NCBI GenBank assembly: GCA_903879985.1
Contig: CAIRNR010000007.1
Span: 151,665 to 215,664, forward strand
Direction: 5' to 3'
Origin: an uncultured candidate division WWE3 bacterium
GTDB taxonomy: Bacteria > Patescibacteriota > WWE3 > UBA101185 > UBA10185
Length of the DNA: 64,000 nt
The position numbers and the translations under genes were made by a program. The notes below the pieces were generated by a model. The model saw only the letters and a program-made list of their open reading frames with translations, did not search any database and was not told the DNA's origin. Shown one piece after another: positions 18,831-36,629 of this stretch (the stretch's first letter is position 1; the number at the start of each line of letters is the position of its first letter).

Positions 18831-20012
18831 ATGAAAATACTTTACCTAATTAACGGACTAGGATTCTCCGATAACACAGGAATAGGTGGCGCAGATAAAC
18901 GCGCAGTAGAAATCGCACGACAATCAAACCAATTTAGCGTTTTAACCACTGCATCTGGATATAACTTATTTAAAAATAACGAAGGATTGGACACAACCTA
19001 TTACACAATAAACCAACCAAGCTTTTGGCCTAAGGGAATAAATAAAAATCTGATAGGGCGTATGCTTTCCTATATTTACGCAACTTTTGCATCACTTACA
19101 TATGCAAGTAAAGTAAAAAATTACGACATGTATTTTCCAAGCTCTGATTTTTTCTTTGACGTAATACCCGCTTATTTTTTTAAACTTGCTAATCACAAAA
19201 AGCTGGTTTGTGTGATTCATCATCATATTCAAAATCCATTTAAACGAAAAGGACCCTTGTTGGTTAATATGCTTCTTTTTTTACTGCAACAGCTTAGTAT
19301 TATTTTTTTAAAAGTCACAGCGGAAGCAATATTCTTATACGACACTCCAGAAGGACACTACATTGCTGAAAACTTGCTGAAAAGTTACAAAGGCAAAATA
19401 TTTTTTATGAAAAACGGCATAAGTGTTGAAGCAATTGATAGTGTTCCCACTCAAGAAAAGATTTACGATGCGTGTTTTGTCGGAGGAATAAGACCAAGCA
19501 AAGGTATCGCAGATTTTGTAAAGATTTGGAAAAGTGTAACCGCAGAGATTCCTAAAGCAAAATTTGCCGTTATAGGCGGTGGAAGTGAAGAAAATGTAAA
19601 CAAGCTTAAAGAGGAAATTTATCAGGCGGGACTGCAAGAAAATATTATTTTATTTGGACCACTTAGCGGAAGTGCTGTTTACAAAATTCTAAAGCAAAGC
19701 AAAGTTTTCATGTCCCCAAGTTACGAAGAAGGTTGGGGAATTGCCGTATGCGAAGCGATGTATTGCGAGCTACCGATTGTTTGTTATGATCTTCCCGCAT
19801 ACAAGGTGTTTGGCACGGGTTTGAAAAAGGTTGAGGTTGGAAATTACGAAGAGTTCGCTAAGAATATTCTGGCGTTGTTAAAAGATCCAAAGATGTCTTC
19901 AGAGATTGGCATCCAACTAAAAAATATAGCTGGAAATTTTACTTGGAAAAATATTGCAAAGGAGGATAGTGAATTCCTAAGTCAAATACTACAGGGTACT
20001 ATAATAGTATAA
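18831..20012 (+). CDS. Glycosyltransferase family 4.
   Basis: EGWGIAVCEAMYCELPIVCYDLPAYKVFG motif. Confidence 0.85.
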   Translation: MKILYLINGLGFSDNTGIGGADKRAVEIARQSNQFSVLTTASGYNLFKNNEGLDTTYYTINQPSFWPKGINKNLIGRMLSYIYATFASLTYASKVKNYDMYFPSSDFFFDVIPAYFFKLANHKKLVCVIHHHIQNPFKRKGPLLVNMLLFLLQQLSIIFLKVTAEAIFLYDTPEGHYIAENLLKSYKGKIFFMKNGISVEAIDSVPTQEKIYDACFVGGIRPSKGIADFVKIWKSVTAEIPKAKFAVIGGGSEENVNKLKEEIYQAGLQENIILFGPLSGSAVYKILKQSKVFMSPSYEEGWGIAVCEAMYCELPIVCYDLPAYKVFGTGLKKVEVGNYEEFAKNILALLKDPKMSSEIGIQLKNIAGNFTWKNIAKEDSEFLSQILQGTIIV

Positions 20013-20958
20013 AACCTTCAAAAAAGCCCGAAATACCACGTAATTGGCTTAAATCACGTAATCTAAGCGCACTATAAACCCAGTATAGGTTCAATACCTT
20101 TATGTTAATAATTGCCCCGATCCAACCGCGTAAACTCTTTGGACGCACGTCTTTTCGATAAAACATGCCTGTATCCTTTCCAATAAAATAAGCATTTCTA
20201 GAAGGACCGAGCCTCATAAAATGTTTAGCCGAAACTAAAGGACTAAAAATAATTTTAAACCCTGCAGCTTTTACCCTTATAAATAAATCTCCGTCGGCGT
20301 GATTAAAATTAAATCTTTCATCAAACCCGCCGATTTTTTCTATGATACTTCGGCGTGTGCCCATACTTGTTGTTGTAGCCAAATCTATCTCTTGTCTATC
20401 AAAGTTAACTGCTTCTGGCAACGCTGTCCCCAAACTATATGCGCCGCTCTCAAAAAAATATCCTGGTTTCAAAATATTTCCTTCGGCAACTATATTTAAA
20501 TATGGCCAAGCAATAATTTTCATTACCAAGTTCTTTTGACTGGCCAAATACAATCGATGCATTTCACCAACAGGATAACATTGAGACGGAAGTGGCCCGG
20601 TTATAACTCCAATCTTTTCATCTCCATTAAGTTCTGCCACAATTCCTTCAAGCCAAGTTTTATCGGCTTCGGCGTCATCAGCTAAATAACCAAGTAGTTC
20701 TGTGTCAGCATTTTTCCACCCCAAATTAAAAAGATAAGATAATCTTTTTTTAGGATCGCAAATTACGCGCAAATTGTCATCAGGATATTCGGAAACAATA
20801 TCTTTAATTTTGGAATCGTCTGCAAAGTTTTCGATAATTAGAATTTTAAAATCTTTGTAATTTTGGTTAGTAATTGAGTTTAAAGCTCTTTCCAGATCTT
20901 CTCTTCGACCATTACGTGGATATGTATTAATGATTACTGTAACGGTTTTTTCTTGCAT
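19999..20958 (-). CDS. Glycosyltransferase family 2.
   Basis: VTVIINTYPRNG...DD GT-A N-terminal pattern with DxD-like motifs. Confidence 0.8.
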   Translation of the reverse strand: MQEKTVTVIINTYPRNGRREDLERALNSITNQNYKDFKILIIENFADDSKIKDIVSEYPDDNLRVICDPKKRLSYLFNLGWKNADTELLGYLADDAEADKTWLEGIVAELNGDEKIGVITGPLPSQCYPVGEMHRLYLASQKNLVMKIIAWPYLNIVAEGNILKPGYFFESGAYSLGTALPEAVNFDRQEIDLATTTSMGTRRSIIEKIGGFDERFNFNHADGDLFIRVKAAGFKIIFSPLVSAKHFMRLGPSRNAYFIGKDTGMFYRKDVRPKSLRGWIGAIINIKVLNLYWVYSALRLRDLSQLRGISGFFEGFILL

Positions 20959-22061: not shown

Positions 22062-23693
22062 CTACTTTGTTTCCGGGGAAGAAAACATACTTTTTAGTGC
22101 CGCCATCCAAAATTTTGGAGACCACCAACTTATTTTTGTTTGGTTTTTATCAAAGTCTAACAAGTGAGCTAAAAGTTTCCATGCGCTGTAAAAAAGAAAC
22201 TTAACGTCGTTTAAGTCACGCACACCTATAACACGTCTGAAAATGTATTGTGGCGAGAAAAACGCCGAATACAACGACTGTGTGAGTTCGTACAACCGTT
22301 CGTTTGAAAACGGCACTTTCATCACTGGTGCGCGCATATCAAAAGCTTCATAATCCGTTGGATCTACAGTGAGCCAGTCTTTTTCAATACATTCTTTATA
22401 AAGCGGTGTACCAGGATAAGGAATTACAATAGTCGCCTGCATAGTTTCGACATAACCCTTTTTAAACAAATCCTTGGCCATATTAATAGTGTTTAAAGCC
22501 ATTTCTTCAGTTTCCCAAGGATAACCAAGCATAATCGTTAAATGTGGTTCTAAACCAGCTTTTCTGGCCATTTTTACACCTTGTTCTATTTCTTCAACCT
22601 TTAAGCCTTTATCTAACTTATCCAAAGTAAATTGGTTTGCTGATTCCATACCGTACAAAATAAATCTAAAGTTAGCCTTACCCATTAAATCGTAATATTC
22701 TTGGGTTAGAGCATTTAAACGCATGTTGCAGCTGTATACAGCTTTTTTGCTGTAACCGGATTCAATCATAAGCTCACAAAACTTCTTTAAAGGTGGACCA
22801 ACAAATAATGTGCCAGCATCATCAAAAATTTCTTTTACTCCATATTTATCAACAACATACTTAACTTCGGCAAACAAACGTTCAGGTGAAAAACGTCGAT
22901 AAGACTTTAATGGGTTAATAGTGTGATCCCAAACACAAAACGTACAACGATTCCACCAGCAATCACGACCTGAATACATATATGTTGCAGGTTTATATTT
23001 ATAATTTCCATTTTCGTAGGCATACAATTCCCAATGAGTGAGATCGCGATCGATAAAAGGTAACTCGTCTAGCTTGTGCTCAAGATGCAATGGGCCTGAT
23101 TTCCAATACTCTGTTTTACCGGAATTTTCGTGCTTAACCCATTCAGGATCTAAATGAACGCGACTGTCATTTTTACGACCATAAATTCCGCCTGGTAACA
23201 TTGTTCCTTTTGTAATAGAGTCGGCCAAGTCGGATAACAAAAAGTCATAATCACCACCTGTAATAATATAATCAACTTTGCAATTTTCTAAAGTTTCAAG
23301 CGGCTTCCAAGTTACATGATCCCCCACCAAAACCACTAAAAGATTTGGCAATTTCGATTTTATTTCATCAACTATTTTCCAGTGTTTTTTTAAAACCGGA
23401 GCTTTTGTTTCGAGTAATAAAATATCGGGAGATTCCTTAAGTAATTCTTCAAGCCAGTCAGAATAGCTTTTTTTTTCAGCGATACCGTCTAACCAAACCA
23501 CATCGTAGCCTCGTTGTTTTGCCAAAGAAGCAGCATACGCAGGTACCATAGGATAAATGTAAGTTGGCGCATTAAAGTACTGAAATTGTCTATTCTGCGA
23601 CAGCAAGGGTACACCTTTTTCTTGTTCTAGTGGTGCATAACCAATGGCAATTTTCATATGGTTAGTATAGTGGTTAGTGACGTCATTGTACAT
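22062..23693 (-). CDS. B12-binding-domain radical SAM protein (class B-like) with atypical cysteine spacing.
   Basis: N-terminal Rossmann-like B12-binding-like region. The cluster GRDCWWNRCTFCVWD reads as CX4CX2C rather than the canonical CX3CX2C. Confidence 0.75.
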   Translation of the reverse strand: MYNDVTNHYTNHMKIAIGYAPLEQEKGVPLLSQNRQFQYFNAPTYIYPMVPAYAASLAKQRGYDVVWLDGIAEKKSYSDWLEELLKESPDILLLETKAPVLKKHWKIVDEIKSKLPNLLVVLVGDHVTWKPLETLENCKVDYIITGGDYDFLLSDLADSITKGTMLPGGIYGRKNDSRVHLDPEWVKHENSGKTEYWKSGPLHLEHKLDELPFIDRDLTHWELYAYENGNYKYKPATYMYSGRDCWWNRCTFCVWDHTINPLKSYRRFSPERLFAEVKYVVDKYGVKEIFDDAGTLFVGPPLKKFCELMIESGYSKKAVYSCNMRLNALTQEYYDLMGKANFRFILYGMESANQFTLDKLDKGLKVEEIEQGVKMARKAGLEPHLTIMLGYPWETEEMALNTINMAKDLFKKGYVETMQATIVIPYPGTPLYKECIEKDWLTVDPTDYEAFDMRAPVMKVPFSNERLYELTQSLYSAFFSPQYIFRRVIGVRDLNDVKFLFYSAWKLLAHLLDFDKNQTKISWWSPKFWMAALKSMFSSPETK

Positions 23694-23694
23694 T

Positions 23695-24717
23695 TTACCC
23701 GCCTAAGTATTTGCCGGAAGCGTCGTCAACACTACGTAATTCTAACTTTGGTCTTTTTAATAAACCTAAAATAAAGTTAAAACCATAAGTAGCGTGAATT
23801 AGCACAAATCCCCAAAAAGCTATAAAAAACACAAAAGGTCCGTGTTTAATTTCTTTGTACGCAATCTTTGTAGTTTCATAAGTTACAAACCAAAAATAAA
23901 GCATTATCAAAAAAAGCATCACAAATCTAAAAGGAAAACTGAAGATACATAAAATAGCACCAATGATTCCAACTAAAATAACAAATGACGGAACAAAGTA
24001 AGCGGGAATTCTTGACGTTGCAGGATACGTACGTGCAAATTGCCCGCGTTGTCGCCCATACCTGGAAATTTGCTTTAAAAATGGTAAGTATAAGTCGCGT
24101 CGATGATGATATACAATAATCGAAGGATCATAGATAAAATCTTTTTTCTTAAGTTTAATTAAATCCAAACAAAGTTTTGTATCTTCACCGGGCCAAAACG
24201 CTTCATCAAAACCACCTACTTTAATAAAAGCTTCTTTTTCTACGAACAAATTTACCGACGGATAATCATTAATATTTCTTCTATCCCGAGGAACATGGCG
24301 ATACGTTGTAAAACCACCGGAAAGCCACGACTCTAAAATATCGCCCGAAAGTTTTTCGCGCACACCTGCGTCGGGTGGTGTCATCGCAGGTCCGCCAAGT
24401 GCATATGTACCTGTTTCGTCAAAAACACTTTTCGCATTTTTTAGCCAATTCTTTGCCGGAAATGCATCATCATCTAAAAAGGCTAATATTTGGCCACGCG
24501 CTTTGTTAGCGCCTATATTTCTTTTTTTAGCAGGACCTACAGCGCCACTTTCCAAAAAAGTAACTTCAGGATAAAGATGCATTACCTCGTTGTCCAAAGA
24601 ATCTAAAATTACGATTGTTTCAAATTCCTTAAATGTCTGATTGGCCAAAGCCTTTAATATTTCTTTTAAGTAAGGATTAAATTTTCTAACCGGAATAACA
24701 ACGCTAAATTTTGTCAT
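23695..24717 (-). CDS. Glycosyltransferase family 2 with a C-terminal transmembrane region.
   Basis: FSVVIPVRKFNPYLKEILKALANQTFKEFETIVILD N-terminus and C-terminal hydrophobic helices. Confidence 0.8.
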   Translation of the reverse strand: MTKFSVVIPVRKFNPYLKEILKALANQTFKEFETIVILDSLDNEVMHLYPEVTFLESGAVGPAKKRNIGANKARGQILAFLDDDAFPAKNWLKNAKSVFDETGTYALGGPAMTPPDAGVREKLSGDILESWLSGGFTTYRHVPRDRRNINDYPSVNLFVEKEAFIKVGGFDEAFWPGEDTKLCLDLIKLKKKDFIYDPSIIVYHHRRDLYLPFLKQISRYGRQRGQFARTYPATSRIPAYFVPSFVILVGIIGAILCIFSFPFRFVMLFLIMLYFWFVTYETTKIAYKEIKHGPFVFFIAFWGFVLIHATYGFNFILGLLKRPKLELRSVDDASGKYLGG

Positions 24718-25543
24718 GTGATAATTCTCCTGTGTTTACACGCATCTCTAATTCTTTGTCGTAAATCCATTTACGTTTACTGGAGTCGTCATAATATTTT
24801 AGAATTTTAAGTCTATAGAAAATTGCGGCGGTATCTAATAACATAGCTCTAACATTCGGCTCAAAGATAAAGGTGAGTCCTATATTTGAGTTTTTACTAT
24901 CCCAAACTACAGTCACAGGAGCTTCGTATATTTTTTTAAAACCCAATCTATGTGCTACCGATAAAATCTCAACATCAAATGCAAAATTTTTAACTAACAC
25001 TCGGGGTAAGACTTTTTCCAATACTTCCCTTTTAAAAACTTTTAAACCTGTTTGGGTATCTTTAACTGGGATATCAAATAAAATTCGAACTAGCAAATGA
25101 TAAACCTCGCTATAAATCCTTCGAACTAAAGGATAAGATACTCGCGAAACCGGATGCCTTTTACTGCCAACAATAATATCAGCGTCATACCATTCCATAT
25201 GTTCTAAAAGCATTGATACACCTTTACGATCAATGTCCATGCCCGCATCTATGAAAGATATATAATACCCCGTCGCACGTACCATACCGTAGCGTATAGC
25301 ATAACCTTTGCCTTTGTTTGTTTCATATCCAAATACCTTTATACGAGGACCGGCCAGTTTTTTGACTTCATCAAAAGTTTTATCTAGAAAGCCATCAACA
25401 ACAACAATAATTTCATATTCCCAGCGAGTTAAAGCCATAGTTGCATCAACAGACTTAATATCTTCAAAAATGGTTTTTTCTTGTTTATAGGCAGGAATAA
25501 TAATCGAAACTTTTTTAGGTTGTGTGCTTGGTTTTTTGTGCAT
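24704..25543 (-). CDS. Glycosyltransferase family 2.
   Basis: VSIIIPAYKQEKTIFEDIKSV...VVDGFLD. Confidence 0.8.
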   Translation of the reverse strand: MHKKPSTQPKKVSIIIPAYKQEKTIFEDIKSVDATMALTRWEYEIIVVVDGFLDKTFDEVKKLAGPRIKVFGYETNKGKGYAIRYGMVRATGYYISFIDAGMDIDRKGVSMLLEHMEWYDADIIVGSKRHPVSRVSYPLVRRIYSEVYHLLVRILFDIPVKDTQTGLKVFKREVLEKVLPRVLVKNFAFDVEILSVAHRLGFKKIYEAPVTVVWDSKNSNIGLTFIFEPNVRAMLLDTAAIFYRLKILKYYDDSSKRKWIYDKELEMRVNTGELSHDKI

Positions 25544-26786
25544 AAATCGTAAGTAACCCTAAAGTGATTATACTAGCAATTATATTTGCGTTTATAACAT
25601 CATACAGACTGGCGTGATTTACTGATATTAAAATGTACTGAATCAAAAGCCCCGGAAGTAAAAAGATAAACACCCAGGTTTTTTCAATTGCCAAACAATA
25701 CATAATGAAAAAGTTAATAAGCACGTAAAATAAAACGAATATTGAAAACCTTGGTAAATACTGAATTGAGTCAAAAAATCTGGAACCAAAAAATATTTGA
25801 GTAATAAGTCCTGGTAAAAATGAAAAAGCTAAAAGTCCGCATAAAGCTACAAAAACCTCAATACTCAACAATTTAAAGAACTTTGCTTTGTAGTTTTCCT
25901 TTTTTGCATAAACCGAAGAAATAATCGGAAACATAATTGTTGTAACAATTCCTGCGCCGAATAAATATATCTTTCCCAAAGTAACGGTGCCCGCGTAATA
26001 ACCTGCCAATGTGGGATCAAAAAACTTTTTAACCAAAATTACGTCCATATTATTTAGTGACATAATTCCTAGATTAATAAAAAACACTGGAAGACTAAAG
26101 GTAAGTAATTTTTTAAACTGAACAGATAAATGATTATCAACTTTTTTACCTAAATCTTCTTTGATAAGTAAATAAGTAGTGGCATACGAGAGTAACATTG
26201 CTACCGACATTCCTCCAAACACCCCTGCGACCTCATAACCAATATAAATTCCGATTAAGGGTAAAACTAATCTAAATAAACTACTTATGATAAAGAAAAA
26301 AGAGAGTGATTTATATTTTAATAAACCCTGCAAATAAGATCCTGCTATGGCGTTTAAAAATAGAAAAGCTAAATATATGTTAAAAGCATTTATATATGAG
26401 GGATTATCAATTTTTAACTGAGATGCAACGTACCCGCTAAAAAGTGTGGCTAATGCATATACAACTACACCTAACAACAAAAACTGAATACTTAACTTTT
26501 TAAATAGAGCGTTAAGTTTTGGATAATCTGCGTTGGCTTTTAGTGTGGCCACAACCTTAACTAATGAAATACCAACTACAGCGGCGGGAACACCAAGTAT
26601 TGTTGATACAGAAAGAAGTGCATTAAAAGAACCGAAATCTTCAACTGACAACATTCTTCCGAGGAAAAACTGAAGTAAATAGCTTAGGAATGAACCTATG
26701 ACTGTACCAATACCAACAACAACAGTTCCATAAAAATATTCATTTTTAATAACTTGGGAAATGTATTTACTTACTGCTTTCATCAA
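25515..26786 (-). CDS. Wzx-like polysaccharide flippase (MOP superfamily).
   Basis: About 12 predicted TM segments in 423 aa, with the typical MOP flippase layout. Confidence 0.65.
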   Translation of the reverse strand: MMKAVSKYISQVIKNEYFYGTVVVGIGTVIGSFLSYLLQFFLGRMLSVEDFGSFNALLSVSTILGVPAAVVGISLVKVVATLKANADYPKLNALFKKLSIQFLLLGVVVYALATLFSGYVASQLKIDNPSYINAFNIYLAFLFLNAIAGSYLQGLLKYKSLSFFFIISSLFRLVLPLIGIYIGYEVAGVFGGMSVAMLLSYATTYLLIKEDLGKKVDNHLSVQFKKLLTFSLPVFFINLGIMSLNNMDVILVKKFFDPTLAGYYAGTVTLGKIYLFGAGIVTTIMFPIISSVYAKKENYKAKFFKLLSIEVFVALCGLLAFSFLPGLITQIFFGSRFFDSIQYLPRFSIFVLFYVLINFFIMYCLAIEKTWVFIFLLPGLLIQYILISVNHASLYDVINANIIASIITLGLLTIYAQKTKHTT

Positions 26787-28417
26787 TTATTACGCTTATA
26801 AACATTGTATACATCAGCACCTCGAACTTTTATCGTTCCTATTTTTGTTACAGAAAAGCGCACTTCAGTAGCACCTGTGTCGTCCCATACAGGATATACA
26901 AAATATTTTGCGTGAATGGCAAATGGAGTTAGATCGGAAATAATAGCAAACATTCCTTTTTCTCTAAAGAATGGCCAAATTTGCGTGTAATATTTTTCTT
27001 GAAAACCTATTGTTTCGGTTTTAGCAATTTCTCCTGACGCAATCATGCCTTCAAGTGATTTGTCCTGATACAAGCGCGTTGAACCATCTTGTGCAGCCAA
27101 TTTATCAAAGTAATCAACTGTCTCCGTAGCACCAATCATCCATTTAGGTTCAATAACATGAATTCCTTTACTAACACCACCTAACAACGGATTGTAATAA
27201 GAAAAGTAATCAGGATATAAATATACCAAAGGAATGGCACTAAGTAATAAAAACATGGCGTATTTTGCGTATTTATTAAACTTTATCCTTCCAGCCAACC
27301 AAAAATAAAATGTTGATGAAATTAAAGACAACGAAAGCATTGCCGGAATAATGTATCTATCTAATTTTTTTGAAGGTAGCGTAAGCTGAATAAAATAGAA
27401 GAAGGTAAAGATAAAACAAAATAGTACAAATTTTTTCAGTGTCTTATCTTTAAGTTGAATATACGTTATCGCGGAACCAAGTATTCCGATTAGCAATAGT
27501 ATAGAAGCCCGATATGCTAGAACCACGAAATAATAAAACACTCCAGGATCTGTCACATATGTATCAAAATAAAATTGGCTGTGATCACCTTCAACGCCTA
27601 TTACCGCAATTCCGCGATACATTGTTTGAATAGCTTCAACTGGATTGACCCACATGATTGGCCAAAATAATACAAATGTCGCTAAAGCTAATCCAAGCCA
27701 AATTCCAAAAGGTACCCAAAGTTTCTTAATTGTTACAAATAAATTGCGATGTTCATCAAGATTCCACAGAAATATGCTTAAACCTGCGAACGGAATTAAA
27801 TACAATGCCGAGGTCTTAGTTAAAATGGCAAATCCGGCAAACACACCGGATAAAATCAGATGCCAATATTTTTTTGTGTTCAAAAAGTAAAATAGCCACA
27901 TAGCACTGGCGATCATAAACGTGGACATCATTCCTTCTAAATGAAAGACTCTGGTTAAAGCAATATATAAAGGTTCCAGAGCAATTCCCGTTATGGCAAA
28001 TGCCGCATATCTTTTACCAAATAATTGTTGAAGAGGATAAAAACAAAAAGCTAGGGTAAGTCCAAGCACGAATACAAGCAATGCCTTTTGTACTACATCC
28101 AAACCAAAAGCCGCAAATGTGGTGTTACCAGAAGCGATTGATTGGTGAGTTATATCGGCATACAGGTTAAATATTTTAACGCCGGCAACGCCAACCCACA
28201 TAAGTGTTACACCAGGATGATATTTTTGAAGCGTCTTTTCAAAGTTTAAGGAAAAAATGCCGGTACCAAAATCGTAGCTACGTGCCTTCCACTTCCATAC
28301 GTCGGTATTAAAGTTGTCATGACCAAGAGACGGGGCGCGCGACAAAACAAATAGAACAACTATCAAAAGCTCGGGTAACAATAATTTTAAGTTTTTCAGC
28401 GTAAATATCTTTTTCAT
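26783..28417 (-). CDS. GT-C fold membrane glycosyltransferase (PMT_2/ArnT-like), paralog A.
   Basis: YHPGVTLMW motif and a KKLDRYIIP C-terminal motif shared with 29915-31462. Confidence 0.7.
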   Translation of the reverse strand: MKKIFTLKNLKLLLPELLIVVLFVLSRAPSLGHDNFNTDVWKWKARSYDFGTGIFSLNFEKTLQKYHPGVTLMWVGVAGVKIFNLYADITHQSIASGNTTFAAFGLDVVQKALLVFVLGLTLAFCFYPLQQLFGKRYAAFAITGIALEPLYIALTRVFHLEGMMSTFMIASAMWLFYFLNTKKYWHLILSGVFAGFAILTKTSALYLIPFAGLSIFLWNLDEHRNLFVTIKKLWVPFGIWLGLALATFVLFWPIMWVNPVEAIQTMYRGIAVIGVEGDHSQFYFDTYVTDPGVFYYFVVLAYRASILLLIGILGSAITYIQLKDKTLKKFVLFCFIFTFFYFIQLTLPSKKLDRYIIPAMLSLSLISSTFYFWLAGRIKFNKYAKYAMFLLLSAIPLVYLYPDYFSYYNPLLGGVSKGIHVIEPKWMIGATETVDYFDKLAAQDGSTRLYQDKSLEGMIASGEIAKTETIGFQEKYYTQIWPFFREKGMFAIISDLTPFAIHAKYFVYPVWDDTGATEVRFSVTKIGTIKVRGADVYNVYKRNN

Positions 28418-29958
28418 AAAGCGTACTTAAATATAACTATACCAGGGCCACGACGATTTACGGGATCAATTCTTGTTATTTCCTGTAAATCGATGAAATG
28501 CACGGAGTTTTCGAGCCAAAGTTTTCGGGCTAAATATTCCTCTGAATCAAAATAAAGAACAATGTATCCGCAATTGTTTTTGGAAATCTTATCTAGTCCT
28601 TTGTAAGTCTTGGCACTAACTGCATTTGCCACAGCAGAAAAATCCGCATCAAAGTATACCAAATATGCGGTATTCGGAAGATTTGCCTTTAAATAATTGA
28701 AAGCTAAATTTCTGGTGTCTTGGTTTGCAAATTCCATGGAAGCGATACTTGAGGCATAAAACGGCGGAATTAAAAAAAATACGAAAAGCAACAACGATAT
28801 ATATTTATATTTTTTATCGAAGAACTGTAAACATTCCTCCAAAAAGCAACCAGTTATAATAGCCACATAAGGATAAATAATTAAATAGTAATGAGAGCGA
28901 GAATCTATTGCTCCTGAGACAATGTAAACGAATACCAAAGAAGTAATGTATAAAAATAACAAGCCAAAATCCCTTTGGGTACTTTTCTTTTTAAGAATAC
29001 GATATAAAACAATTCCCAAATATATTAAGAAACCTATTAGTACGGTGTAGCCCAAGTCGATAATCAATCTTTCCGACATATCGCGAAAAAAGTTTTGTAT
29101 ATGATCTGGAAATTCCCGAGAACCAACATTGGTGAATTGCCACAAAGCTCCTTTGGGACCATCGGTGCGCGAAAAGGTTTTGTAATCAAATAAGGCGTAA
29201 GGTGTACCAATTAAAAACGCTAATATCGATAAAGCTCCTGCCAAAAATAAATATCCTGTAGATTTTAGGTTAGTAAATTTTTGCCAAAAACTTTTGGTTA
29301 CATGCGCCAAAAAAAACCCTAGCGCAGATAGTCCCCCATTATATTTCGCAGAAGCAGCAAAGCCAATTAAGAGTCCGCCTAAAATATAGTCCTTCAAAGT
29401 TGTAGCGTAAAAAATGCAAATTGAAAAATATACAACCCACGCCAACAAAAAAACCATAGGGATATCAGGTAATGCATAGTGAGATTGCACAACATGCATA
29501 GGTAATATTGCAAAAATCAAAGCACTTAATATGCCCGCCTTAATGTTAAATAACTTTTTTGAGGATAAATACACGGGTATAACCGTTAATGCCCCAATAA
29601 AAGCGGTTAACACTCTAGATAAAAAGTAAAAGGACAATGAACCATCCCCGAGAATAGGCAGCCATGAGAAGACAATTCTGCTTAACCCCACTGTATGCGA
29701 TGAATCGCGAAACTTAACAAACAAAAAATACATAAAGTAATTTACATAAATATACAAATGTGGCCAATCAAAGTGTCCCGGATTTTTATCAAAAAATATT
29801 CCCAACGCCGAACGCACAATTGTAGGTTCATCTGGATGAAATATAAAAGGGAAACCATACTGAATACCAAGCATCCTAAGTAATAGGGCCAAAACAAAAA
29901 CAAGTATTAAACCGCTATTTATCTTCTTCAACATATATTCTCCAGTATTCAAGTCCAT
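28414..29958 (-). CDS. GT-C fold membrane glycosyltransferase (GT39/PMT_2-like).
   Basis: YGFPFIFHPDEPTIVRSALGIFF N-terminal loop, typical of PMT_2/ArnT-type enzymes. Confidence 0.7.
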   Translation of the reverse strand: MDLNTGEYMLKKINSGLILVFVLALLLRMLGIQYGFPFIFHPDEPTIVRSALGIFFDKNPGHFDWPHLYIYVNYFMYFLFVKFRDSSHTVGLSRIVFSWLPILGDGSLSFYFLSRVLTAFIGALTVIPVYLSSKKLFNIKAGILSALIFAILPMHVVQSHYALPDIPMVFLLAWVVYFSICIFYATTLKDYILGGLLIGFAASAKYNGGLSALGFFLAHVTKSFWQKFTNLKSTGYLFLAGALSILAFLIGTPYALFDYKTFSRTDGPKGALWQFTNVGSREFPDHIQNFFRDMSERLIIDLGYTVLIGFLIYLGIVLYRILKKKSTQRDFGLLFLYITSLVFVYIVSGAIDSRSHYYLIIYPYVAIITGCFLEECLQFFDKKYKYISLLLFVFFLIPPFYASSIASMEFANQDTRNLAFNYLKANLPNTAYLVYFDADFSAVANAVSAKTYKGLDKISKNNCGYIVLYFDSEEYLARKLWLENSVHFIDLQEITRIDPVNRRGPGIVIFKYAL

Positions 29959-31462
29959 TTATGTAAATGGAACTATCTTTCACAAAAAAAACATCAGGTC
30001 TATCTTTCATATTTGCGGGTAGGTCTTCACCAATGCCTAAGACTAAAATATCATATTCACCAGGTTCATACGCGCGAACATCAAATACCTTGGAATTTGG
30101 ATATATTGTCTTTATAGGTTTTGTATCATAAAAACCTAGAGAAACTTCCCCATACTTTTTAACTATATAATCTCTAAGTTGCACCATGCCAATTCCAAAT
30201 GGTTTTTGAGCAATAATATGATTAGCCTGCGACGGTGTACCAACCAACGGACTCGTGTATGTAAAGTAGTAAGGATAATAAGTAAACATCGGAAGCATAA
30301 TAAATGCAACTGCAGCAGCTCCGGTAAAACCTAAGTAAATCTTATCTTTATTAATAAAATCTCTAAGCTTGTAAAAACCAAACACAGCTATAATTGCCAA
30401 AAACGGATATTCGGGCAACATATATCTATCCAATTTTTTTGCAGGAATAGTCATCACAACAAAATAGCCTATGTAAAAGACAAACAGCATCAATGTAAAT
30501 GAATTTAAATCAAATCGTAATTTTCTTTTTGTAAGATCTATCAAAAGAAGAAGCGCAAAAATTACAACGCCCAAAAGAGTAAAAGGAGAAACTTTTAGTA
30601 GCAACACCAAAGGATAAAAAGATTCATCCGCCGTTTCGGTGTATTCATCTAAAACTATTTGCGGATGCCCATTTTTTAAACCAACACGTTCAGATTCACT
30701 TATAATATTTTTCAGCACAAACATAGGCTGAACCCATAATGCCGGAAACAGTGCAAAGATCATAACTATCGAAGTAACAGTGACCAAACCTAAATATTTA
30801 ATATTCTTTCGATCTTTAATAATTTGATAGGCCGAATAAAAGAAGGCGAAAACTAAAGTACCAAGTCCAATGCTCTTAGTTAAAAAAGAAAGTGCAATAA
30901 ATAATCCAGTTAATAAAGCATATACAACAGACTTTTTATTAAACGTTAAATACATGCAAATAAGCGCCAGAAACACAAACAAGGTTAACAATACATCCAT
31001 GTGGTACATACGGGAATTTCCCAAAAAGAAAGGTTCCAAAGAAAAAAGCAAGACGGTGAAGAATGATTTATAAAAACCAATTATTTTTGTGAGCAACCAA
31101 AAGATTAAAATCGTAAGAATCAACTGGGCACTTACAACGCTGGCTTTAGCTACAAAATTGAAGGCCAAGAAGTTTGTTCTATCGTAGGTATTAATGTTTG
31201 TGACCTGCTTATACGCTTCAATAGCAACACCTGAAATCCACATTAAAGTTACGCCAGGGTGATAGTGCTGATAGGTTCGCAAAAAGTCGTGAGTTTTAAG
31301 ACCTACAATAAATTGCTGCGATCTATAGTGCCAGTTAACCCCGTCGGGATTTATTTCGTCAGGGCCAAGGTACAGGAAACGCGTCAAACCAAAGACAACG
31401 AAAAACAACACAATAAGTAATATTTTTTTAGTCTTTTCCTGTAGCATACAAAACTCCTCCAA
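29915..31462 (-). CDS. GT-C fold membrane glycosyltransferase, paralog B of 26783-28417.
   Basis: YQHYHPGVTLMWISG and KKLDRYMLPEYPF motifs. Confidence 0.7.
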   Translation of the reverse strand: MEEFCMLQEKTKKILLIVLFFVVFGLTRFLYLGPDEINPDGVNWHYRSQQFIVGLKTHDFLRTYQHYHPGVTLMWISGVAIEAYKQVTNINTYDRTNFLAFNFVAKASVVSAQLILTILIFWLLTKIIGFYKSFFTVLLFSLEPFFLGNSRMYHMDVLLTLFVFLALICMYLTFNKKSVVYALLTGLFIALSFLTKSIGLGTLVFAFFYSAYQIIKDRKNIKYLGLVTVTSIVMIFALFPALWVQPMFVLKNIISESERVGLKNGHPQIVLDEYTETADESFYPLVLLLKVSPFTLLGVVIFALLLLIDLTKRKLRFDLNSFTLMLFVFYIGYFVVMTIPAKKLDRYMLPEYPFLAIIAVFGFYKLRDFINKDKIYLGFTGAAAVAFIMLPMFTYYPYYFTYTSPLVGTPSQANHIIAQKPFGIGMVQLRDYIVKKYGEVSLGFYDTKPIKTIYPNSKVFDVRAYEPGEYDILVLGIGEDLPANMKDRPDVFFVKDSSIYINGLEYWRIYVEEDK

Positions 31463-32306
31463 TTAGACTTACTGCAAGTTTTGATAAGTGAAACAAAATG
31501 GAGGCGCTTAAAGCAACAGCCGGGGAAATTGCTACCAACGTAAATAGATCGCGATACATCGTATCTTGTACCCCAAGTCCGTTAAGTGAGGGAATAAAAA
31601 AACTGGCCAAGGTAATTAGTGGAAAAAACAAAAAAGTTGCACCTAAGGGCAAGCGCACACCTAAAGCCATGAAAATAAAGTACTGGGTGAAGATAGAACA
31701 CAGTTGAACTATTAAAGATGTAACAAGCGCCCAAATTACCACAGATCTATGGTGGCGGTATGAATATAAAGAATCAGAATATTTTTTAATCTTTGGAAAT
31801 TTCTTAGAAATAACCTTTAAGAATTTTAAGCCAATAAATATTCCTGCTATAGCTGCGATTACTACCAAAATAACATAACTTCCAATGTAATGAGTTAAAC
31901 CAAAGATAGAAATAAATCCTAAAACAACAACTCCTGTAAATCTTTCCATAAACGTCGACGAAAAACCTCTGGAGCTATCCCCCAGCTTTTTACTTAACCT
32001 GAAAATCTTGTAAACATCTCCACCAATACTTGTAGGCATGAAGTTATTGAAAAAAGACCCAATGAAATATAAAGAGGTTAAATACCAAACCGAAACTTTA
32101 TTATTCGATTCCAACAATAAGGACTTCCATCTAACGGAACTAATAAAATAGTTCATAACCAATAAACCAAGGATTATTGGAGCGTAAGCTAAATTAACTT
32201 TAGATATCGTAGCTACCAGAGATTGTTTATCAACTTTGAAGTACAGAAAAGCTATCAAAGCAACACTTACCACTATTTTTAAGATTAGCTTTGAATATTT
32301 CTTCAT
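31428..32306 (-). CDS. Lysylphosphatidylglycerol-synthase-TM-region-like (UPF0104, flippase-like) membrane protein.
   Basis: Eight TM helices in 292 aa with a central PTSIGGDVYK segment typical of this family. Confidence 0.55.
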   Translation of the reverse strand: MKKYSKLILKIVVSVALIAFLYFKVDKQSLVATISKVNLAYAPIILGLLVMNYFISSVRWKSLLLESNNKVSVWYLTSLYFIGSFFNNFMPTSIGGDVYKIFRLSKKLGDSSRGFSSTFMERFTGVVVLGFISIFGLTHYIGSYVILVVIAAIAGIFIGLKFLKVISKKFPKIKKYSDSLYSYRHHRSVVIWALVTSLIVQLCSIFTQYFIFMALGVRLPLGATFLFFPLITLASFFIPSLNGLGVQDTMYRDLFTLVAISPAVALSASILFHLSKLAVSLIGGVLYATGKD

Positions 32307-33787
32307 TTAAAACCAAAACGTTTCTTTAAAACTTTTACTTTATTCACTAAATACACAAAATCATCTTTTGTTACAAAACTAGAAATATAAAAACTCCAAA
32401 GCATTAGTGCAACAAAAATAGGAAATGTCACAAACTTAAGCCAAAAGTTATCGACAGTTACGATTAATGAAATTGCAAAGCCTTCCATTATTAGCACAAC
32501 GTGGTCAATGTTAAAGAAAGTTAGTTTAATTGTACGTGAAATCATAATAAGCATGTAAGCCAAAGCAATTAAGGAACCAAATGCGGCGCCCCAAGCCATA
32601 GCGGAAAGTTCGGGCAAAACAGGAATAAGTCTGGAGGTTACATAAAAAAATCCTCCGGTTCCAACAATCATTAACCCAAACGTAATAATCATATCTCGAA
32701 TCATTTTTGCAGGTATTAAAACGCTAGACTTTATAACATTAATATATGAATAAAATATGAACGCCATGATCATTGGCGCTACAAGTGGAAAAGACGCATC
32801 ATACTTTGAGCTGCCTACCAAAATCTTGGCTATTTCTCTGGCCCAAAAAGATGCAAACGCACCTACAAAAAGAACAATACAGAATAACTTATCAAAGTTT
32901 TTGGCAAAACTAACCTTAAAATCTTCTATATCGTTTACATACTTTTCGGAAAACACTGGCAAACTAACATCAGTAGCGGCATCGGAAATACTCATAAGTT
33001 TTTTAGCATACAACATAGCAAAAGCAAAAATTGCGACTGTAGCCGGGGTATTAAACAATCCTAAAATATTGTTACCCATCTTTTCCCAGTTAGTGTAAAT
33101 AACTTTAACCAAATAAATGGCCATGCTTATAGAAAATATTTCCTTAAACAAGCGTGTAAAGTCGCGCTTATTCGGCAGCTGCAATTTTCCTTTGAGAGGT
33201 TTAAAAGCTATAACTGCCAATGAAACCGAGCAAATAATATTAAAGGCCAAAAGTGCATAAAAATAACCGTTAATCTTGTATAACAATATTAAAGGCACGT
33301 ACACAATAACACTAACGAAAGCTATAACGACTTGATATATAAACAACTGACCAAATCTTTTTGTTCCTTGGATTACGGAGTTCAAGATACTCTGAAAACC
33401 CTGAAAGATTAAGGTTACAGCGTAAATTTTTAAAGGTAGCACCAGTAAGTCACTTTTATACATAGTTACAGCAATAAAATGTGCGAAAAAGAAAAGAACA
33501 AAAGCAACAGGAATACTTATAACGTATCGTATGACAGCCGAGGTAATGAAGACCTTGAAAACATCACTATCGTCCTTAGCGGCCGAAATTTCTCGAGTAC
33601 TGGCCGAGGCTAAACCTAAGTGTTGGTAAATACCCAAAGCACCACCAATAGATGAAGCTATTTGAACAATTCCCCAGTCGGAAACACTCAATATACGTAT
33701 TATTACAAACGTTTGAATAAGGCCCAGCGCCATTGCCATGCCTCTTGATATGAAGCTAATAAATTGCCATTTACCTAGTTCTTTCAT
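32303..33787 (-). CDS. Wzx-like polysaccharide flippase (MOP superfamily).
   Basis: 494 aa with about 12-14 TM segments. Confidence 0.65.
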   Translation of the reverse strand: MKELGKWQFISFISRGMAMALGLIQTFVIIRILSVSDWGIVQIASSIGGALGIYQHLGLASASTREISAAKDDSDVFKVFITSAVIRYVISIPVAFVLFFFAHFIAVTMYKSDLLVLPLKIYAVTLIFQGFQSILNSVIQGTKRFGQLFIYQVVIAFVSVIVYVPLILLYKINGYFYALLAFNIICSVSLAVIAFKPLKGKLQLPNKRDFTRLFKEIFSISMAIYLVKVIYTNWEKMGNNILGLFNTPATVAIFAFAMLYAKKLMSISDAATDVSLPVFSEKYVNDIEDFKVSFAKNFDKLFCIVLFVGAFASFWAREIAKILVGSSKYDASFPLVAPMIMAFIFYSYINVIKSSVLIPAKMIRDMIITFGLMIVGTGGFFYVTSRLIPVLPELSAMAWGAAFGSLIALAYMLIMISRTIKLTFFNIDHVVLIMEGFAISLIVTVDNFWLKFVTFPIFVALMLWSFYISSFVTKDDFVYLVNKVKVLKKRFGFK

Positions 33788-33797
33788 AGGATATACC

Positions 33798-35933
33798 TCA
33801 CTTTACTACGATATCGCCAATATACAAATTGCGGGTCTTGATTTTATTGGACATACCTACAAAAACTTTATACGTGCCTGAATTAATGAATTGGGGCAGA
33901 GCAATATCAACATCTTCTATATAATGTTTGTTTGTTTCCCAATTGGCAGGCTCATTTATAGAAAACGAAGGTAAGTTAGCCAATTGATAAAGTTCCCCTG
34001 TGGACTTGTTAATGTAAGTCATATACAAAACGAAACCTTCTAAAGCAGTACCATCTCTTTTCACATAAACTATTTGAGCTTTGTCATCGACTCCCCTAGT
34101 AACTTCAGCTGGAAGCGTAAAGTCGACGACTGTTAAGCCATAAAGTATTGGATAATTATATTTTTCGGTGTAAGCATATCTTTCTTGTAATGGTAGCAAC
34201 AACGACTGTGTATGTGGGCCAACTCTTTTGAATACAAATAGATTTCCGCAGCCGGTAGAAAGTTGGTAATTTGGATCTTTAATTAAACTACTTACTACGT
34301 CTTTAACTAAATTTGTTTGTAAATCTAAAATGGTAAGAATCTTCTGTGAAAAGACATCCACAATTACATAATCTGTTTGGTTGTATAAAGCAGGAAATAT
34401 TGCATATGTTTCACGTAAAGATAGCTGCGCACCTAAATAATCAGGACCTGAAACCGAAGCGCCGGCGGGAATCATGTTTACAACTTTTTGTGCGCATTCA
34501 ACGTCCTTATTATCAAGCTGAGTCAGTTTTACAACATCCCCAATTTTAACTTTATTAAGGTCAATGCTGTTATCAAACTCTTTTGCAAATGCTCTTCGAG
34601 TCACAGCCTGTTGAAGCCATAAATAAACAGGATTGTTGTAAAAAAACGTAGTATAAATACTAAAACCAAATGTAATAAGAGCGGCTACAATAATTATAGA
34701 TTTTTTTATTTTCGGAAAGCTTTTCTTTTTAAACGACGTTAAATAATATGCCAAAAAGCTTATACCGTAAATTGTTGAAATAAACACGATAGGAAGAATC
34801 ATAGACACGCGATGATTGGTTATTTCCGAAGTACCTACGCCATCAACAGTCGTTAAAAAGTTAATGAAAATATCTGGAGACGCAATTATTAGAGTAAGTG
34901 GCGAAAGTATGGCCATATAGCCGACTGGTTCAAAAATTCGTTGTAAATTCTCTATTCTATCGCCACTAAATAAAACCTTAATCACCATTTTTGGGTTTGT
35001 AACCATGGTAATTAAGACTTCTGAATATGAATTTCCAAAGTCAGAGTATCTACCCAAAAAGTAATTTTCCTCATCAACATTACGCACTGAATTTGGATCA
35101 ATTTGTAATGTAGCGGCAAATTTCTGAAAGCCATCGACCCTTTGTTTTGAGTAAGCAGGAATAATAATTAAAAATGCGACAACAAACCAAACTATGCCTA
35201 CGCCAATCATGCTAAGTGCAATCTTTGAAGTTTTTAATGAAATAAATTTTTTAAACCAGTCAAAATCAAACTTAAATTTTGGAGCATCAATACTTCGGAA
35301 AAACATTACAAAAATTCCATAAAGTATTACATATAAAGGTAATTGTTCTTTTCCGGACATTGTAAGAACAAGCATTAACCAAAACAAAATCATGCGGCCT
35401 TTAGAAAAATTCTTTTCTCTATACATTTTCTCGAAAACGTAGAAGGCGGTTAAGAAAAATGGAACTACTACAGTAACACCATGAAACCCGGTTGTGGCAT
35501 TTAAATAGCCAATAGATGGGTTAAGTAAATATGCAGCAGATATAAGAAAGGCAGCGATCTTGCTGTCTAATTCTAATTCGGCGATTTTGTAAACAACAAC
35601 AGCGCCCAGTATTACTAAAATAAACTGCGAAAACACCAATACAAGCGGGTGCTGATAAATAGCAAACAAAGGCAAGAATAATAATAATATTGGATCAACG
35701 TGACTCATTGACCATCGTGGCAAGTTTGTTCCAAAGTAATCGGTTAAGTACATAAAATGCCCGTGAAGCGTTGTCCAAAGCATTTGAGACATGTTACCCA
35801 AATCAAACTTACCAAAATCGAAATCGTTGTACCTAAATATATTCATACGCGCATTTACAAAAATATTAACTAAAATTAAAATCCACAAAAGGATAAAAGT
35901 AATATTATTTTTTATAAACAAGCGTAATTTCAT
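33798..35933 (-). CDS. Large polytopic membrane protein with a soluble C-terminal domain of about 250 aa (GT-C-like or DUF2079-like).
   Basis: 711 aa with many N-terminal TM helices and a hydrophilic C-terminus. Confidence 0.45.
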   Translation of the reverse strand: MKLRLFIKNNITFILLWILILVNIFVNARMNIFRYNDFDFGKFDLGNMSQMLWTTLHGHFMYLTDYFGTNLPRWSMSHVDPILLLFLPLFAIYQHPLVLVFSQFILVILGAVVVYKIAELELDSKIAAFLISAAYLLNPSIGYLNATTGFHGVTVVVPFFLTAFYVFEKMYREKNFSKGRMILFWLMLVLTMSGKEQLPLYVILYGIFVMFFRSIDAPKFKFDFDWFKKFISLKTSKIALSMIGVGIVWFVVAFLIIIPAYSKQRVDGFQKFAATLQIDPNSVRNVDEENYFLGRYSDFGNSYSEVLITMVTNPKMVIKVLFSGDRIENLQRIFEPVGYMAILSPLTLIIASPDIFINFLTTVDGVGTSEITNHRVSMILPIVFISTIYGISFLAYYLTSFKKKSFPKIKKSIIIVAALITFGFSIYTTFFYNNPVYLWLQQAVTRRAFAKEFDNSIDLNKVKIGDVVKLTQLDNKDVECAQKVVNMIPAGASVSGPDYLGAQLSLRETYAIFPALYNQTDYVIVDVFSQKILTILDLQTNLVKDVVSSLIKDPNYQLSTGCGNLFVFKRVGPHTQSLLLPLQERYAYTEKYNYPILYGLTVVDFTLPAEVTRGVDDKAQIVYVKRDGTALEGFVLYMTYINKSTGELYQLANLPSFSINEPANWETNKHYIEDVDIALPQFINSGTYKVFVGMSNKIKTRNLYIGDIVVK

Positions 35934-35936
35934 TAA

Positions 35937-36629
35937 TTAATCCAAAAACCTAAACTTAACTAAAGTTAAAATAGCGGCAAAGCCATCTTTCCATGTTATA
36001 TGCTTGCCTTCACTCCAACTACGACCTTTATAGCTAATAGGAACTTCTTTTATGCGCAATTTTGCTTTTAAGATTTTTGCCGTAATTTCAGGTTCAAAAT
36101 CAAAACGTGGGGATTTGATGTTAATTTTCCTAACAAAATCTCCAGGCATAAGTTTATAGCATGTTTCCATATCGGTAAGCAAAACCCCAAAGAATAAGTT
36201 AGTTACTATTGTAAGCATCTTGTTTCCAAAATAATGTAAGCTACTCATGTCTTCGTAGTTACCAGAAAACCTTGAGCCATAAATAACGTCGGCTTTACTT
36301 TCTTCTAATGCGCGCAACAAACCTTTTATATCCTGAGGATCGTATTCCAAGTCGGCATCCTGAACAACCACGTAATCGCCTGTTGAATGGGAAAACCCAA
36401 CTTTTAGCGTATCACCTTTACCTTTATTTTCAGGCTTGTAATAAAATTTAACGTTTGGGTAAACTTTTTCCAGATCCTTTAAAATATTTATAGTTCCGTC
36501 TTTTGACGCGTCATCCACTACAATAAGTTCTTTTTCAACAGCGTCCAGATCTACGGCCAATACTCTTTTTATTATTTCTTCAATCGTATTTTTTTCGTTA
36601 TACACCGGTATAACAACAGATAACTTCAT
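35937..36629 (-). CDS. GT2 polyprenyl-phosphate sugar synthase (DPM1/ArnC/GtrB-like).
   Basis: MKLSVVIPVYNEKNTIEEI...VVDDASKDGT...QDADLEYDP. Confidence 0.85.
   Translation of the reverse strand: MKLSVVIPVYNEKNTIEEIIKRVLAVDLDAVEKELIVVDDASKDGTINILKDLEKVYPNVKFYYKPENKGKGDTLKVGFSHSTGDYVVVQDADLEYDPQDIKGLLRALEESKADVIYGSRFSGNYEDMSSLHYFGNKMLTIVTNLFFGVLLTDMETCYKLMPGDFVRKINIKSPRFDFEPEITAKILKAKLRIKEVPISYKGRSWSEGKHITWKDGFAAILTLVKFRFLD

Follow-up and report, generated by a model that had tools for sequence, protein, structure and literature searches.

A fixed array of three GT-C-type membrane glycosyltransferase genes in the surface-glycan locus of WWE3 bacteria

Three adjacent GT-C-type genes

A 64-kb stretch of DNA from an uncultured bacterium of candidate division WWE3 (Katanobacteria, Patescibacteria; contig CAIRNR010000007.1 of assembly GCA_903879985.1, positions 151,665 to 215,664; the whole stretch is referred to here as the window) contains three consecutive open reading frames (ORFs) on the minus strand, at window positions 26783–31462, that encode polytopic proteins of the GT-C class of glycosyltransferases. 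We call these genes A, B and C. Gene A (26783–28417, minus strand) encodes a protein of 544 amino acids, gene B (28414–29934, minus strand) one of 506 and gene C (29915–31447, minus strand) one of 510. The longest possible ORFs of B and C begin further upstream, at 29958 (514 amino acids) and at a TTG codon at 31462 (515 amino acids), respectively, and residues of these two proteins are numbered according to the longer forms. Each of the three proteins scores above the gathering threshold of 26.1 bits of the Pfam family PMT_2 (PF13231), with 30.0 bits for A, 44.4 for B and 33.6 for C, in agreement with an initial annotation of the sequence that had named all three as GT-C-type membrane glycosyltransferases.

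The outer two genes resemble each other. BLASTP aligns A and C (515-residue form) at 29% identity over 441 residues (E = 2e-41), a Smith–Waterman alignment of the two scores 458, where 200 shuffles of C give 48 ± 7.5 (z = 55), and a profile–profile comparison using 64 orthologues of each protein extends the match to the full length, C-terminal domain included (probability 100%, E = 9e-74). This similarity is significant beyond composition and bears out the proposal of the initial annotation that the two are paralogs. The annotation was also right to place two shared motifs at equivalent positions: YHPGVTLMW occupies residues 66–74 of A and 67–75 of C, and KKLDRY residues 350–355 of A (27353–27370, minus strand) and 342–347 of C (30422–30439, minus strand). 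Both motifs are essentially invariant across the 64 orthologues of each protein. At the DNA level the match between A and C is confined to a stretch of 65 nucleotides (nt), 72% identical, that encodes the KKLDRY region. In pairwise comparison B is not significantly similar to either neighbour (BLASTP E = 0.3 against A and 0.04 against C), and its profile matches the A and C profiles at E ~ 1e-8 over the transmembrane core only. By these measures A and C are true paralogs and B is only a distant superfamily relative. The description of B as a distinct gene of PMT_2 type thus holds as to its distinctness, the PMT_2 match being common to all three proteins.

We modelled A with AlphaFold2 from an alignment of 40 sequences and B from one of 37. 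Both models (A, mean predicted local distance difference test score (pLDDT) 91.5 and predicted template modelling score (pTM) 0.92; B, pLDDT 89.0) consist of some 11 long helices and, after them, a small α/β C-terminal domain. ArnT is the top Foldseek match to the model of A (E = 1.5e-7, 14% identity), and by sequence the A profile has no match in the PDB at E ≤ 1. The B profile matches yeast Pmt1 in the PDB (E = 1.9e-12, residues 134–284). In the fold searches A and B are about equally far, at 9–17% identity, from enzymes with lipid, glycan and protein acceptors. Judged by these models A and B are clear GT-C-fold enzymes, and C would be expected to share the fold through its full-length homology to A. 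The superfamily is marked by a polytopic build (~8–13 TM helices, with a conserved N-terminal TM module), likeness to solved GT-C structures and acidic residues in the first outer loop; the models of A and B show the first two, the acidic residues occur in all three proteins, and all three lie outside every characterised family within the superfamily. Membrane topology was read from the model helices and the distribution of charge, with the Lys-rich N terminus taken as inside; a crude Kyte–Doolittle scan for transmembrane (TM) segments was too noisy to use. Most of the conserved polar residues of A would then lie in outer loops, with the C-terminal domain also outside.

The first extracytoplasmic loop of A (residues 28–69; 28211–28336, minus strand), between model helices 7–27 and 70–91, has the pattern P-x-L-G-x-[D/E]34-x-F-N-T-D39-V-W-K-W-K-x-R ... 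F-E-K-T-x-Q-K-Y-H-P-G-V-T-L-M-W. Among its 64 orthologues residue 34 is Asp in 55 and Glu in 8, and D39 and H67 are each present in 63. The loop of C that aligns with it (residues 29–70; 31253–31378, minus strand) reads D35-x-I-N-P-D40-x-V-N-W-H-Y-R-S ... F-[E]-[K/R]-T-Y-Q-H-Y-H-P-G-V-T-L-M-W, with D35 in 59 and D40 in 62 of the 64 orthologues. The first loop of B (residues 30–66; 29761–29871, minus strand) contains a PMT-type 'DE' motif, H-G-F-P-F-I-F-H-P-D43-E44-P ... N-P-x-H-F-D-W-P-H, in which D43 is invariant in 61 orthologues and E44 is found in 60 of them. We regard D34/D39 of A, D35/D40 of C and D43-E44 of B as candidate catalytic acids. The initial annotation had proposed to compare DE or DD motifs in this loop; B has the DE form, and A and C have D-x-[FI]-N-[TP]-D.

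Beyond the loop, A and C orthologues share 38 positions at which the same residue is present in at least 90% of both groups, including D39, W43, R46, H67, K111, E148, R156, H159, H279, Q281 and K350-K351-x-D353-R354-Y355 (A numbering). The last of these, at the outer end of a TM helix, are the conserved residues of the KKLDRY motif. Another 11 positions are conserved in both groups with differing residues, for example T38/P39, K44/H45 and E161/D156, and A and C are equally conserved within their own clades. Profile alignment pairs K111 of A with R115 of B, which in turn pairs with R138 of Pmt1, a residue that we take to be essential in the yeast enzyme. None of the three proteins looks like a degenerate pseudo-enzyme, and all three are probably active.

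Conservation and age of the array

Related loci were sought by scanning one genome per species, which gave 76 loci whose ORFs were called and each assigned to the best-matching window protein. Homologues of A, B and C at 40–55% identity come from WWE3 and 'Patescibacteria group' metagenome-assembled genomes (MAGs), where their annotations read 'glycosyltransferase family 39 protein', 'ArnT family glycosyltransferase' or 'hypothetical protein'. The nearest relative, on a 311-kb contig, has an A protein 71% identical to that of the window and an identical gene order. Many of the loci (in the range L005–L080) are fully syntenic with named WWE3 genomes and labelled 'uncultured Candidatus Saccharibacteria bacterium', and single loci are assigned to Leptospirales (L072) and Nomurabacteria (L056); the taxonomy given to these MAGs appears to be coarse or mistaken.

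Gene order was counted in the 60 loci that have an A orthologue and at least 3.3 kb of upstream sequence. The order C-B-A is kept in 59 of them. In the sole exception (WWE3 bacterium UBA1379, L022, 8491–11611) C and A are directly adjacent, with a 26-nt overlap, and B is missing. Apart from this genome the copy number, the variation of which among relatives the initial annotation had raised, hardly changes.

A neighbour-joining tree of 134 A/C-type proteins contains one clade made up only of A orthologues (66) and another that holds all 64 C orthologues, with a mean identity of 47% inside each clade and 25% between them. These two clean clades, the near-universal gene order and the low DNA similarity between A and C indicate that the two genes stem from one duplication that predates the divergence of the sampled WWE3 lineages, and that copy number is essentially fixed. 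The initial annotation had spoken of local duplication, and the positions of A and C, ~1.5 kb apart and in the same orientation, are those expected of a recent lineage-specific tandem duplication with redundant or fast-diverging copies. Such an origin is nevertheless refuted, and we give it virtually no chance, by the 29% identity of the proteins, the restriction of DNA similarity to 65 nt at 72%, the presence in ~60 other genomes of orthologues of each copy in the same order, and the clean separation of two clades that are equally conserved within themselves.

Four more distant loci (L077–L080) contain A-like genes at 30–32% identity that mostly adjoin B-like genes in other arrangements: DUF2079-Wzx-B-A (L077, 6063–9363), Wzx-B-A-B-A (L079, 5759–11346) and A-B-Wzx-GT2-GT2...rSAM, where GT2 denotes a family 2 glycosyltransferase and rSAM a radical-SAM enzyme (L080, 562–3776). 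In the fourth (L078) a B-like gene lies some genes upstream, and there is also an LPGs-A arrangement. The adjacent B-like and A-like pairs in these distant relatives suggest that the B/A pairing may predate the triplet of WWE3. In the tree, a distance tree that cannot settle the point, the A-like proteins of these loci branch off close to the base of the C side.

The overlaps between the genes are also conserved in relatives. The initial annotation gave these as 4–44 nt. The shorter is a genuine ATGA overlap at the B/A junction (...ctttATGAaaa), and the longer, between C and B, is a product of choosing the longest ORF, which uses the first ATG of B. The ATG at 29934 follows a few bases past a GGAG box, fits the N termini of the orthologues (M1 is nearly invariant in their alignment) and reduces the overlap to 20 nt, the commonest value among the related loci (20 nt in 23 and 17 nt in 15). 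For C, the most likely start is the ATG at 31447, which is preceded by a GGAGG box and agrees with a public gene call of 510 amino acids (P0241) at 100% identity and coverage; it leaves a 20-nt overlap with the flippase-like gene upstream. Realistic overlaps along the series flippase-like gene, C, B, A and Wzx are accordingly 20, 20, 4 and 4 nt. They fit co-translation in fixed proportions, and their conservation is compatible with the translational coupling that had been suggested.

A and C have many relatives outside the WWE3 loci. With a joint profile of A and C, a search of 1.84 billion cluster representatives yields 1,663 proteins at E ≤ 1e-30, a number that rises to 4,387 at E ≤ 1e-10 and to 12,410 at E ≤ 1e-3. 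In the 125 full-length proteins among the best 150 matches, x-H-P-G stands before TM2 in 74 and K-[KR]-x-[DE]-R-Y occurs in 98, and many share the first-loop signature N-x-D...W..R-[ST]..F...T-[YF]-Q-x-Y-H-P-G-V-T-L-M-W. This spread of motifs argues that A and C belong to a large uncharacterised PMT_2/COG1807 subfamily, here called the 'HPG-motif' subfamily, of which YHPGVTLMW and KKLDRY are, on the alignments, the hallmarks. Where sources give these proteins a name, it is '4-amino-4-deoxy-L-arabinose transferase-like glycosyltransferase'. Some members have C-terminal extensions of 200–550 amino acids that A and C lack. Five of them (P0444, P0453, P0486, P0488 and P0498) have 1,030–1,090 amino acids, with one GT-C module and an extension of ~500 amino acids; the extensions of P0444, P0453 and P0488 match no Pfam family. 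A Rosetta-stone test for A-B fusions found none among 19 homologues of 700–1091 amino acids, each of which has a single A/C-type module. Six of the 19 were scanned with Pfam and contain no second GT-C domain, their remaining sequence matching no family.

The fixed gene order and conserved overlaps raise the possibility that A, B and C form one hetero-oligomeric complex, as do Pmt1-Pmt2 and EmbA-EmbB, with some subunits perhaps serving acceptor binding or regulation. The neighbouring B-like and A-like genes of the distant relatives (one pair in L077 and in L080, two in the B-A-B-A array of L079) point the same way, and paralogous GT-C heterodimers are known, two of which (PDB 6p25 and 7bvc) are among the fold-search matches. 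On the other hand, all three proteins keep their catalytic-loop acids, the L022 genome manages without B, and nature offers no A-B fusion among the long homologues. We consider a complex unlikely, if by no means far-fetched; it would be compatible with the three proteins acting as separate transferases, the reading that we favour below.

The surrounding glycan locus

Directly upstream of C lies a gene for a flippase-like membrane protein (31428–32306, minus strand; LPG_synthase_TM, Pfam PF03706, 141 bits; NCBIfam TIGR00374 'flippase-like domain', 70.6 bits), a candidate flippase for lipid-linked sugars. It is followed, moving further upstream on the same strand, by a Wzx-type (MOP/Polysacc_synt) flippase (Wzx 2, 32303–33787; Pfam Polysacc_synt_3, 79 bits), a DUF2079 polytopic membrane protein with a large C-terminal domain (33798–35933; Pfam DUF2079, 126 bits), a GT2 of 230 amino acids (35937–36629; Pfam Glycos_transf_2, 122 bits) and gene E (36632–38281), which encodes a fifth GT-C-like polytopic protein. 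E scores 23.1 bits for PMT_2, below the cutoff of 26.1, and hhalign relates it to C (E = 3e-8) and to B (E = 1e-7). The DUF2079 protein is presumably GT-C-like from what we take to be its Pfam clan; its profile comparison with A, B, C and E gave no link (probability <30%). Downstream of A are a second Wzx-type flippase (Wzx 1, 25515–26786, minus strand; Pfam Polysacc_synt/Polysacc_synt_3), which has a 4-nt overlap with the end of A, and GT2a (24704–25543, minus strand; Pfam GT2, 72 bits).

The 230-residue GT2 is of the polyprenyl-phosphate-sugar synthase type, with AglJ (109 bits), PgfS, ArnC and PpgS as its top NCBIfam matches, all below the equivalog cutoffs, and is a candidate for the enzyme that makes the lipid-linked donor. 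GT2a resembles the same group (PpgS 48 bits, PgfS 47 bits, both below cutoff), as do a GT2 at 43232–43984 and a GT2-GtrA fusion at 43985–45124. The window thus contains four GT2s that resemble polyprenyl-phosphate-sugar synthases of the AglJ, PpgS, ArnC or PgfS kind, and their NCBIfam scores, all well short of the equivalog cutoffs, are informative about enzyme type and not about identity.

Among the 52 loci with enough upstream sequence, 39 have the order E - GT2 - DUF2079 - Wzx - (flippase-like) - C - B - A, and among the 50 with enough downstream sequence 29 have A - Wzx - GT2a - GT2b - rSAM. Variation lies mostly in the outer genes: the triplet and its immediate neighbours, the Wzx and DUF2079 genes among them, are more conserved than the flanking family 4 glycosyltransferase (GT4) and GT2 genes and the E-GT2 pair. 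This pair is missing from L021, L052, L057 and L069, which retain DUF2079-Wzx-C-B-A, and its loss from several genomes suggests that it behaves as an accessory module. The flippase-like gene precedes C in 45/60 loci and is a presence/absence polymorphism; loci without it include L003, L007, L010 and that of the complete RAAC2_WWE3_1 genome (L051), besides others. The triplet is the core of a conserved block, DUF2079 - Wzx - (flippase-like) - C - B - A - Wzx - GT2, in the sampled WWE3 genomes.

With E and the DUF2079 protein there are five GT-C-like genes in one block and seven in the whole window. The initial annotation was therefore right about three adjacent GT-C genes and stopped short of the two just upstream and of two elsewhere. 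One of the latter (7336–10263, minus strand) encodes a 975-amino-acid fusion of a Wzy_C domain (O-antigen ligase/polymerase-type, residues 237–392) and a PMT_2 GT-C module (residues 533–696, 102 bits), whose C-terminal half scores 125 bits against the ArnT equivalog with its cutoff of 567 bits; homologues at 42–48% identity are present in L032 and L046. The other (13802–15169, minus strand) encodes a 455-amino-acid polytopic protein with no Pfam match and an NCBIfam match to the LA_3751/LA_3752 putative glycosyltransferases (57 bits, below cutoff), and is probably another GT-C-like enzyme.

The window has ~35% GC and is coding almost wholly on the minus strand. Its right end appears to carry rpoC, S12, S7, EF-G, EF-Tu, ribosomal-protein genes, secY and adk, assigned by the sizes and order of ORFs, with Pfam confirming only secY and adk. 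A glycan-biosynthesis island of ~44 kb extends leftwards from ~45.1 kb, starting ~1.3 kb downstream of adk, which itself follows the ribosomal-protein/secY operon. Between adk and the glycan operon is a gene for a 323-amino-acid CAP (cysteine-rich secretory protein family) protein (45387–46358, minus strand). The island encodes GT4 and GT2 glycosyltransferases, UDP-glucose dehydrogenase, methyltransferases, a B12/radical-SAM enzyme, the two Wzx-type flippases, an initiating phosphoglycosyl transferase and a DUF4012 protein. The radical-SAM enzyme (22062–23693, minus strand) has a B12-binding domain and is closest to the hopanoid-associated HpnJ (159 bits, below cutoff). Its gene is conserved beside that of GT2b (23695–24717, MftF/EpsD-like), and GT2x (19999–20958) has a weak HpnI match; together these hint that a sugar or a lipid-linked sugar is modified in an unusual radical-SAM reaction. 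The 21 genes on the minus strand from 45124 down to 19999 have no intergenic gap longer than 10 nt, and in a consensus scan of 19.5–39 kb promoter-like and terminator-like sites were less frequent than after shuffling and gave no sign of internal transcription units, which together are compatible with one long transcription unit and are no proof of it. Scans of the window for tRNA genes and Rfam families gave no matches.

Decoration systems for surface polymers are typically variable between strains or serotypes. This bears on the possibility that A, B and C act after polymerisation, as the GT-C arms of GT2, flippase and GT-C systems that add side-chain sugars to a Wzx/Wzy-type polymer, comparable to Gtr seroconversion, GacL and YfhO. 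All three types of gene are adjacent here, the window also has the initiating phosphoglycosyl transferase, the Wzy_C-containing protein and many GT4 and GT2 enzymes, and the scheme is well established (PMC8035078, PMC11127046). Yet conservation within the locus is highest at the triplet, whose order is kept in all but one of the loci counted, while the presumed backbone genes around it vary, and we judge decoration to be an unlikely role for it. From the same pattern, a strongly conserved triplet with conserved neighbours between variable GT4 and GT2 genes, we infer that the three proteins more probably help to build a conserved core structure, in the way of the mycobacterial Emb, Aft and Mpt enzymes, than a strain-variable decoration.

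Possible function and relation to known systems

Our preferred interpretation, held with moderate confidence, is that A, B and C are three separate outer-face GT-C transferases that act on one envelope glycoconjugate, encoded inside a surface-glycan operon. Cytoplasmic GT2 enzymes encoded nearby would load monosaccharides onto polyprenyl phosphate, and one or more of the neighbouring flippase-type proteins would carry the resulting lipid-linked sugars across the membrane to its outer face. There A, B and C would each transfer a sugar to one conserved envelope glycoconjugate, every enzyme with a linkage or position of its own. Catalysis would proceed through the loop-1 acids (D34/D39 in A, D35/D40 in C and D43-E44 in B), with the lipid phosphate held by conserved basic and aromatic residues (K111 in A, K106 in C and R115 in B, together with KKLDRY in A and C and R-S-H-Y in B). 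A and C would have been kept since their duplication as non-redundant enzymes. It is plausible from the conserved sequence differences that each of the three serves its own sugar or acceptor, as the initial annotation had proposed.

Several points weigh against this interpretation. The mechanism is proposed by analogy with characterised GT-C systems, WWE3 is uncultured and the glycoconjugate itself has never been observed. All GT2 matches fall far below the equivalog cutoffs. The equal distance of A and B from lipid-, glycan- and protein-acceptor enzymes makes the class of acceptor unreadable from structure. Finally, the topology comes from model helices and charge distribution instead of a dedicated predictor, and translational coupling is deduced from the overlaps alone.

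More speculatively, DUF2079-Wzx-C-B-A-Wzx may be housekeeping machinery that builds a WWE3-specific envelope polymer outside the membrane from lipid-linked monosaccharides, much as mycobacteria assemble arabinan and mannan, and is perhaps linked to an incomplete peptidoglycan pathway, in which case A and C would be the first functionally placed members of the 'HPG-motif' subfamily and A, B and C might work as one heteromeric complex. We think this reading improbable. The basis of the wall-polymer element is a single statement, that among four candidate-phylum genomes only that of WWE3 has no complete identifiable peptidoglycan pathway (Kantor et al. 2013, PMC3812714). The same study remarked on how abundant glycosyltransferases are in that genome, and offered polysaccharides, glycoproteins or a glycosylated S-layer as possibilities (PMC3812714). 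Were the block indeed such envelope-polymer machinery, the 'HPG-motif' subfamily (~1,660 clusters) might merit a CAZy family of its own.

GT-C enzymes, tandem GT-C paralogs and modules of GT2, flippase and GT-C genes are all well known, and as a genomic observation the array is unsurprising. The triplet is a real cluster of an ordinary kind, and public pipelines already label its proteins as GT39 or ArnT-family. A search of the literature (WWE3 glycosyltransferases and peptidoglycan, GT-C enzymes in Patescibacteria, polyprenol in the candidate phyla radiation (CPR)) found no description of this cluster. The envelopes of CPR/Patescibacteria are almost uncharacterised and WWE3 has no cultured member. 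The block of five GT-C genes, fixed in the sampled WWE3 genomes, is candidate machinery for the main surface glycoconjugate, and a target for heterologous reconstitution or surface markers.

Among characterised families, membership of ArnT/GT83 (PDB 5f15/5ezm) was rejected for A, B and C. Identity is 13–15%, and none of the three matches the ArnT equivalog model (NCBIfam PRK13279) at E ≤ 0.01. The first periplasmic loop of ArnT has conserved RYA and YFEKP motifs (PMC5377068). These are not conserved here: A and C have R-x-Y and F-E-K-T at other spacing, and B has neither. In the A orthologues E60 and K61 of F-E-K-T are present in 37/64 and 36/64, respectively, so that E and K are found at ~56–63% across A and C, with K or R at 94% in C. 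The complete WWE3 genome was reported to have no genes for lipid A or lipopolysaccharide (LPS) biosynthesis (Kantor et al. 2013, PMC3812714), which suggests that the acceptor of ArnT is probably absent. STT3/AglB/PglB (GT66) membership was likewise rejected, as the WWD motif is missing and the score of B, 24 bits, is far short of the cutoff of 450.

The PMT family (PF02366) has a cutoff of 22.7 bits, against which B scores 43.1, C 24.3 (marginal) and A 20.7 (below). In the PMT/GT39 enzymes (yeast Pmt1/2/4 and actinobacterial Pmt) loop 1 bears an Asp-Glu pair, and there is an Arg corresponding to Pmt1 R138. B has the invariant D43-E44 pair, and its R115 aligns to R138. In A and C, D-x-[FI]-N-[TP]-D stands in place of D-E and a Lys (K111 in A, K106 in C) in place of the Arg; the residue after D34 is variable in A, and in C it is E36 in 25/64 orthologues. 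No MIR domain was found in A, B or C. From these comparisons PMT/GT39 membership is plausible for B, marginal for C and not supported for A. That B, possibly with A and C, is a PMT-type protein O-glycosyltransferase for secreted or surface proteins such as an S-layer or pili, using a polyprenyl-phosphate sugar donor, is a reading that we regard as rather improbable.

The set of genes around A, B and C matches the published scheme of multi-component transmembrane glycosylation, in which a sugar is loaded onto C55-P by a GT-A/GT2 enzyme, taken across the membrane by a GtrA- or Wzx-type flippase and attached extracellularly by a GT-C enzyme (PMC8035078, PMC11127046). As in the three-component systems GtrA/GtrB/Gtr*, CsbB/GtcA/YfhO, GacI-J/GacK/GacL and Citrobacter ORF15/14/12, the window co-encodes GT2s, flippase candidates (Wzx-type, GtrA-fused and flippase-like TIGR00374) and GT-C enzymes. 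Unlike these systems, which have one GT-C enzyme, the WWE3 block has five GT-C-like genes, and it is invariant across the whole class, whereas three-component systems vary between strains.

A further parallel is with the mycobacterial embCAB and Aft/Mpt enzymes of arabinogalactan and lipoarabinomannan. In contrast to the Emb-type enzymes, which have ~1,050 amino acids and carbohydrate-binding modules, A, B and C have ~500–545 amino acids and a small C-terminal α/β domain, with no detectable sequence similarity to Emb or Aft. Pfam scans of the window ORFs turned up no arabinose-donor genes of the DprE1/E2 type. As in the tandem arrays of the embCAB type, however, the WWE3 array has adjacent GT-C genes related by duplication, A and C, in this case with only a distant relative, B, between them.

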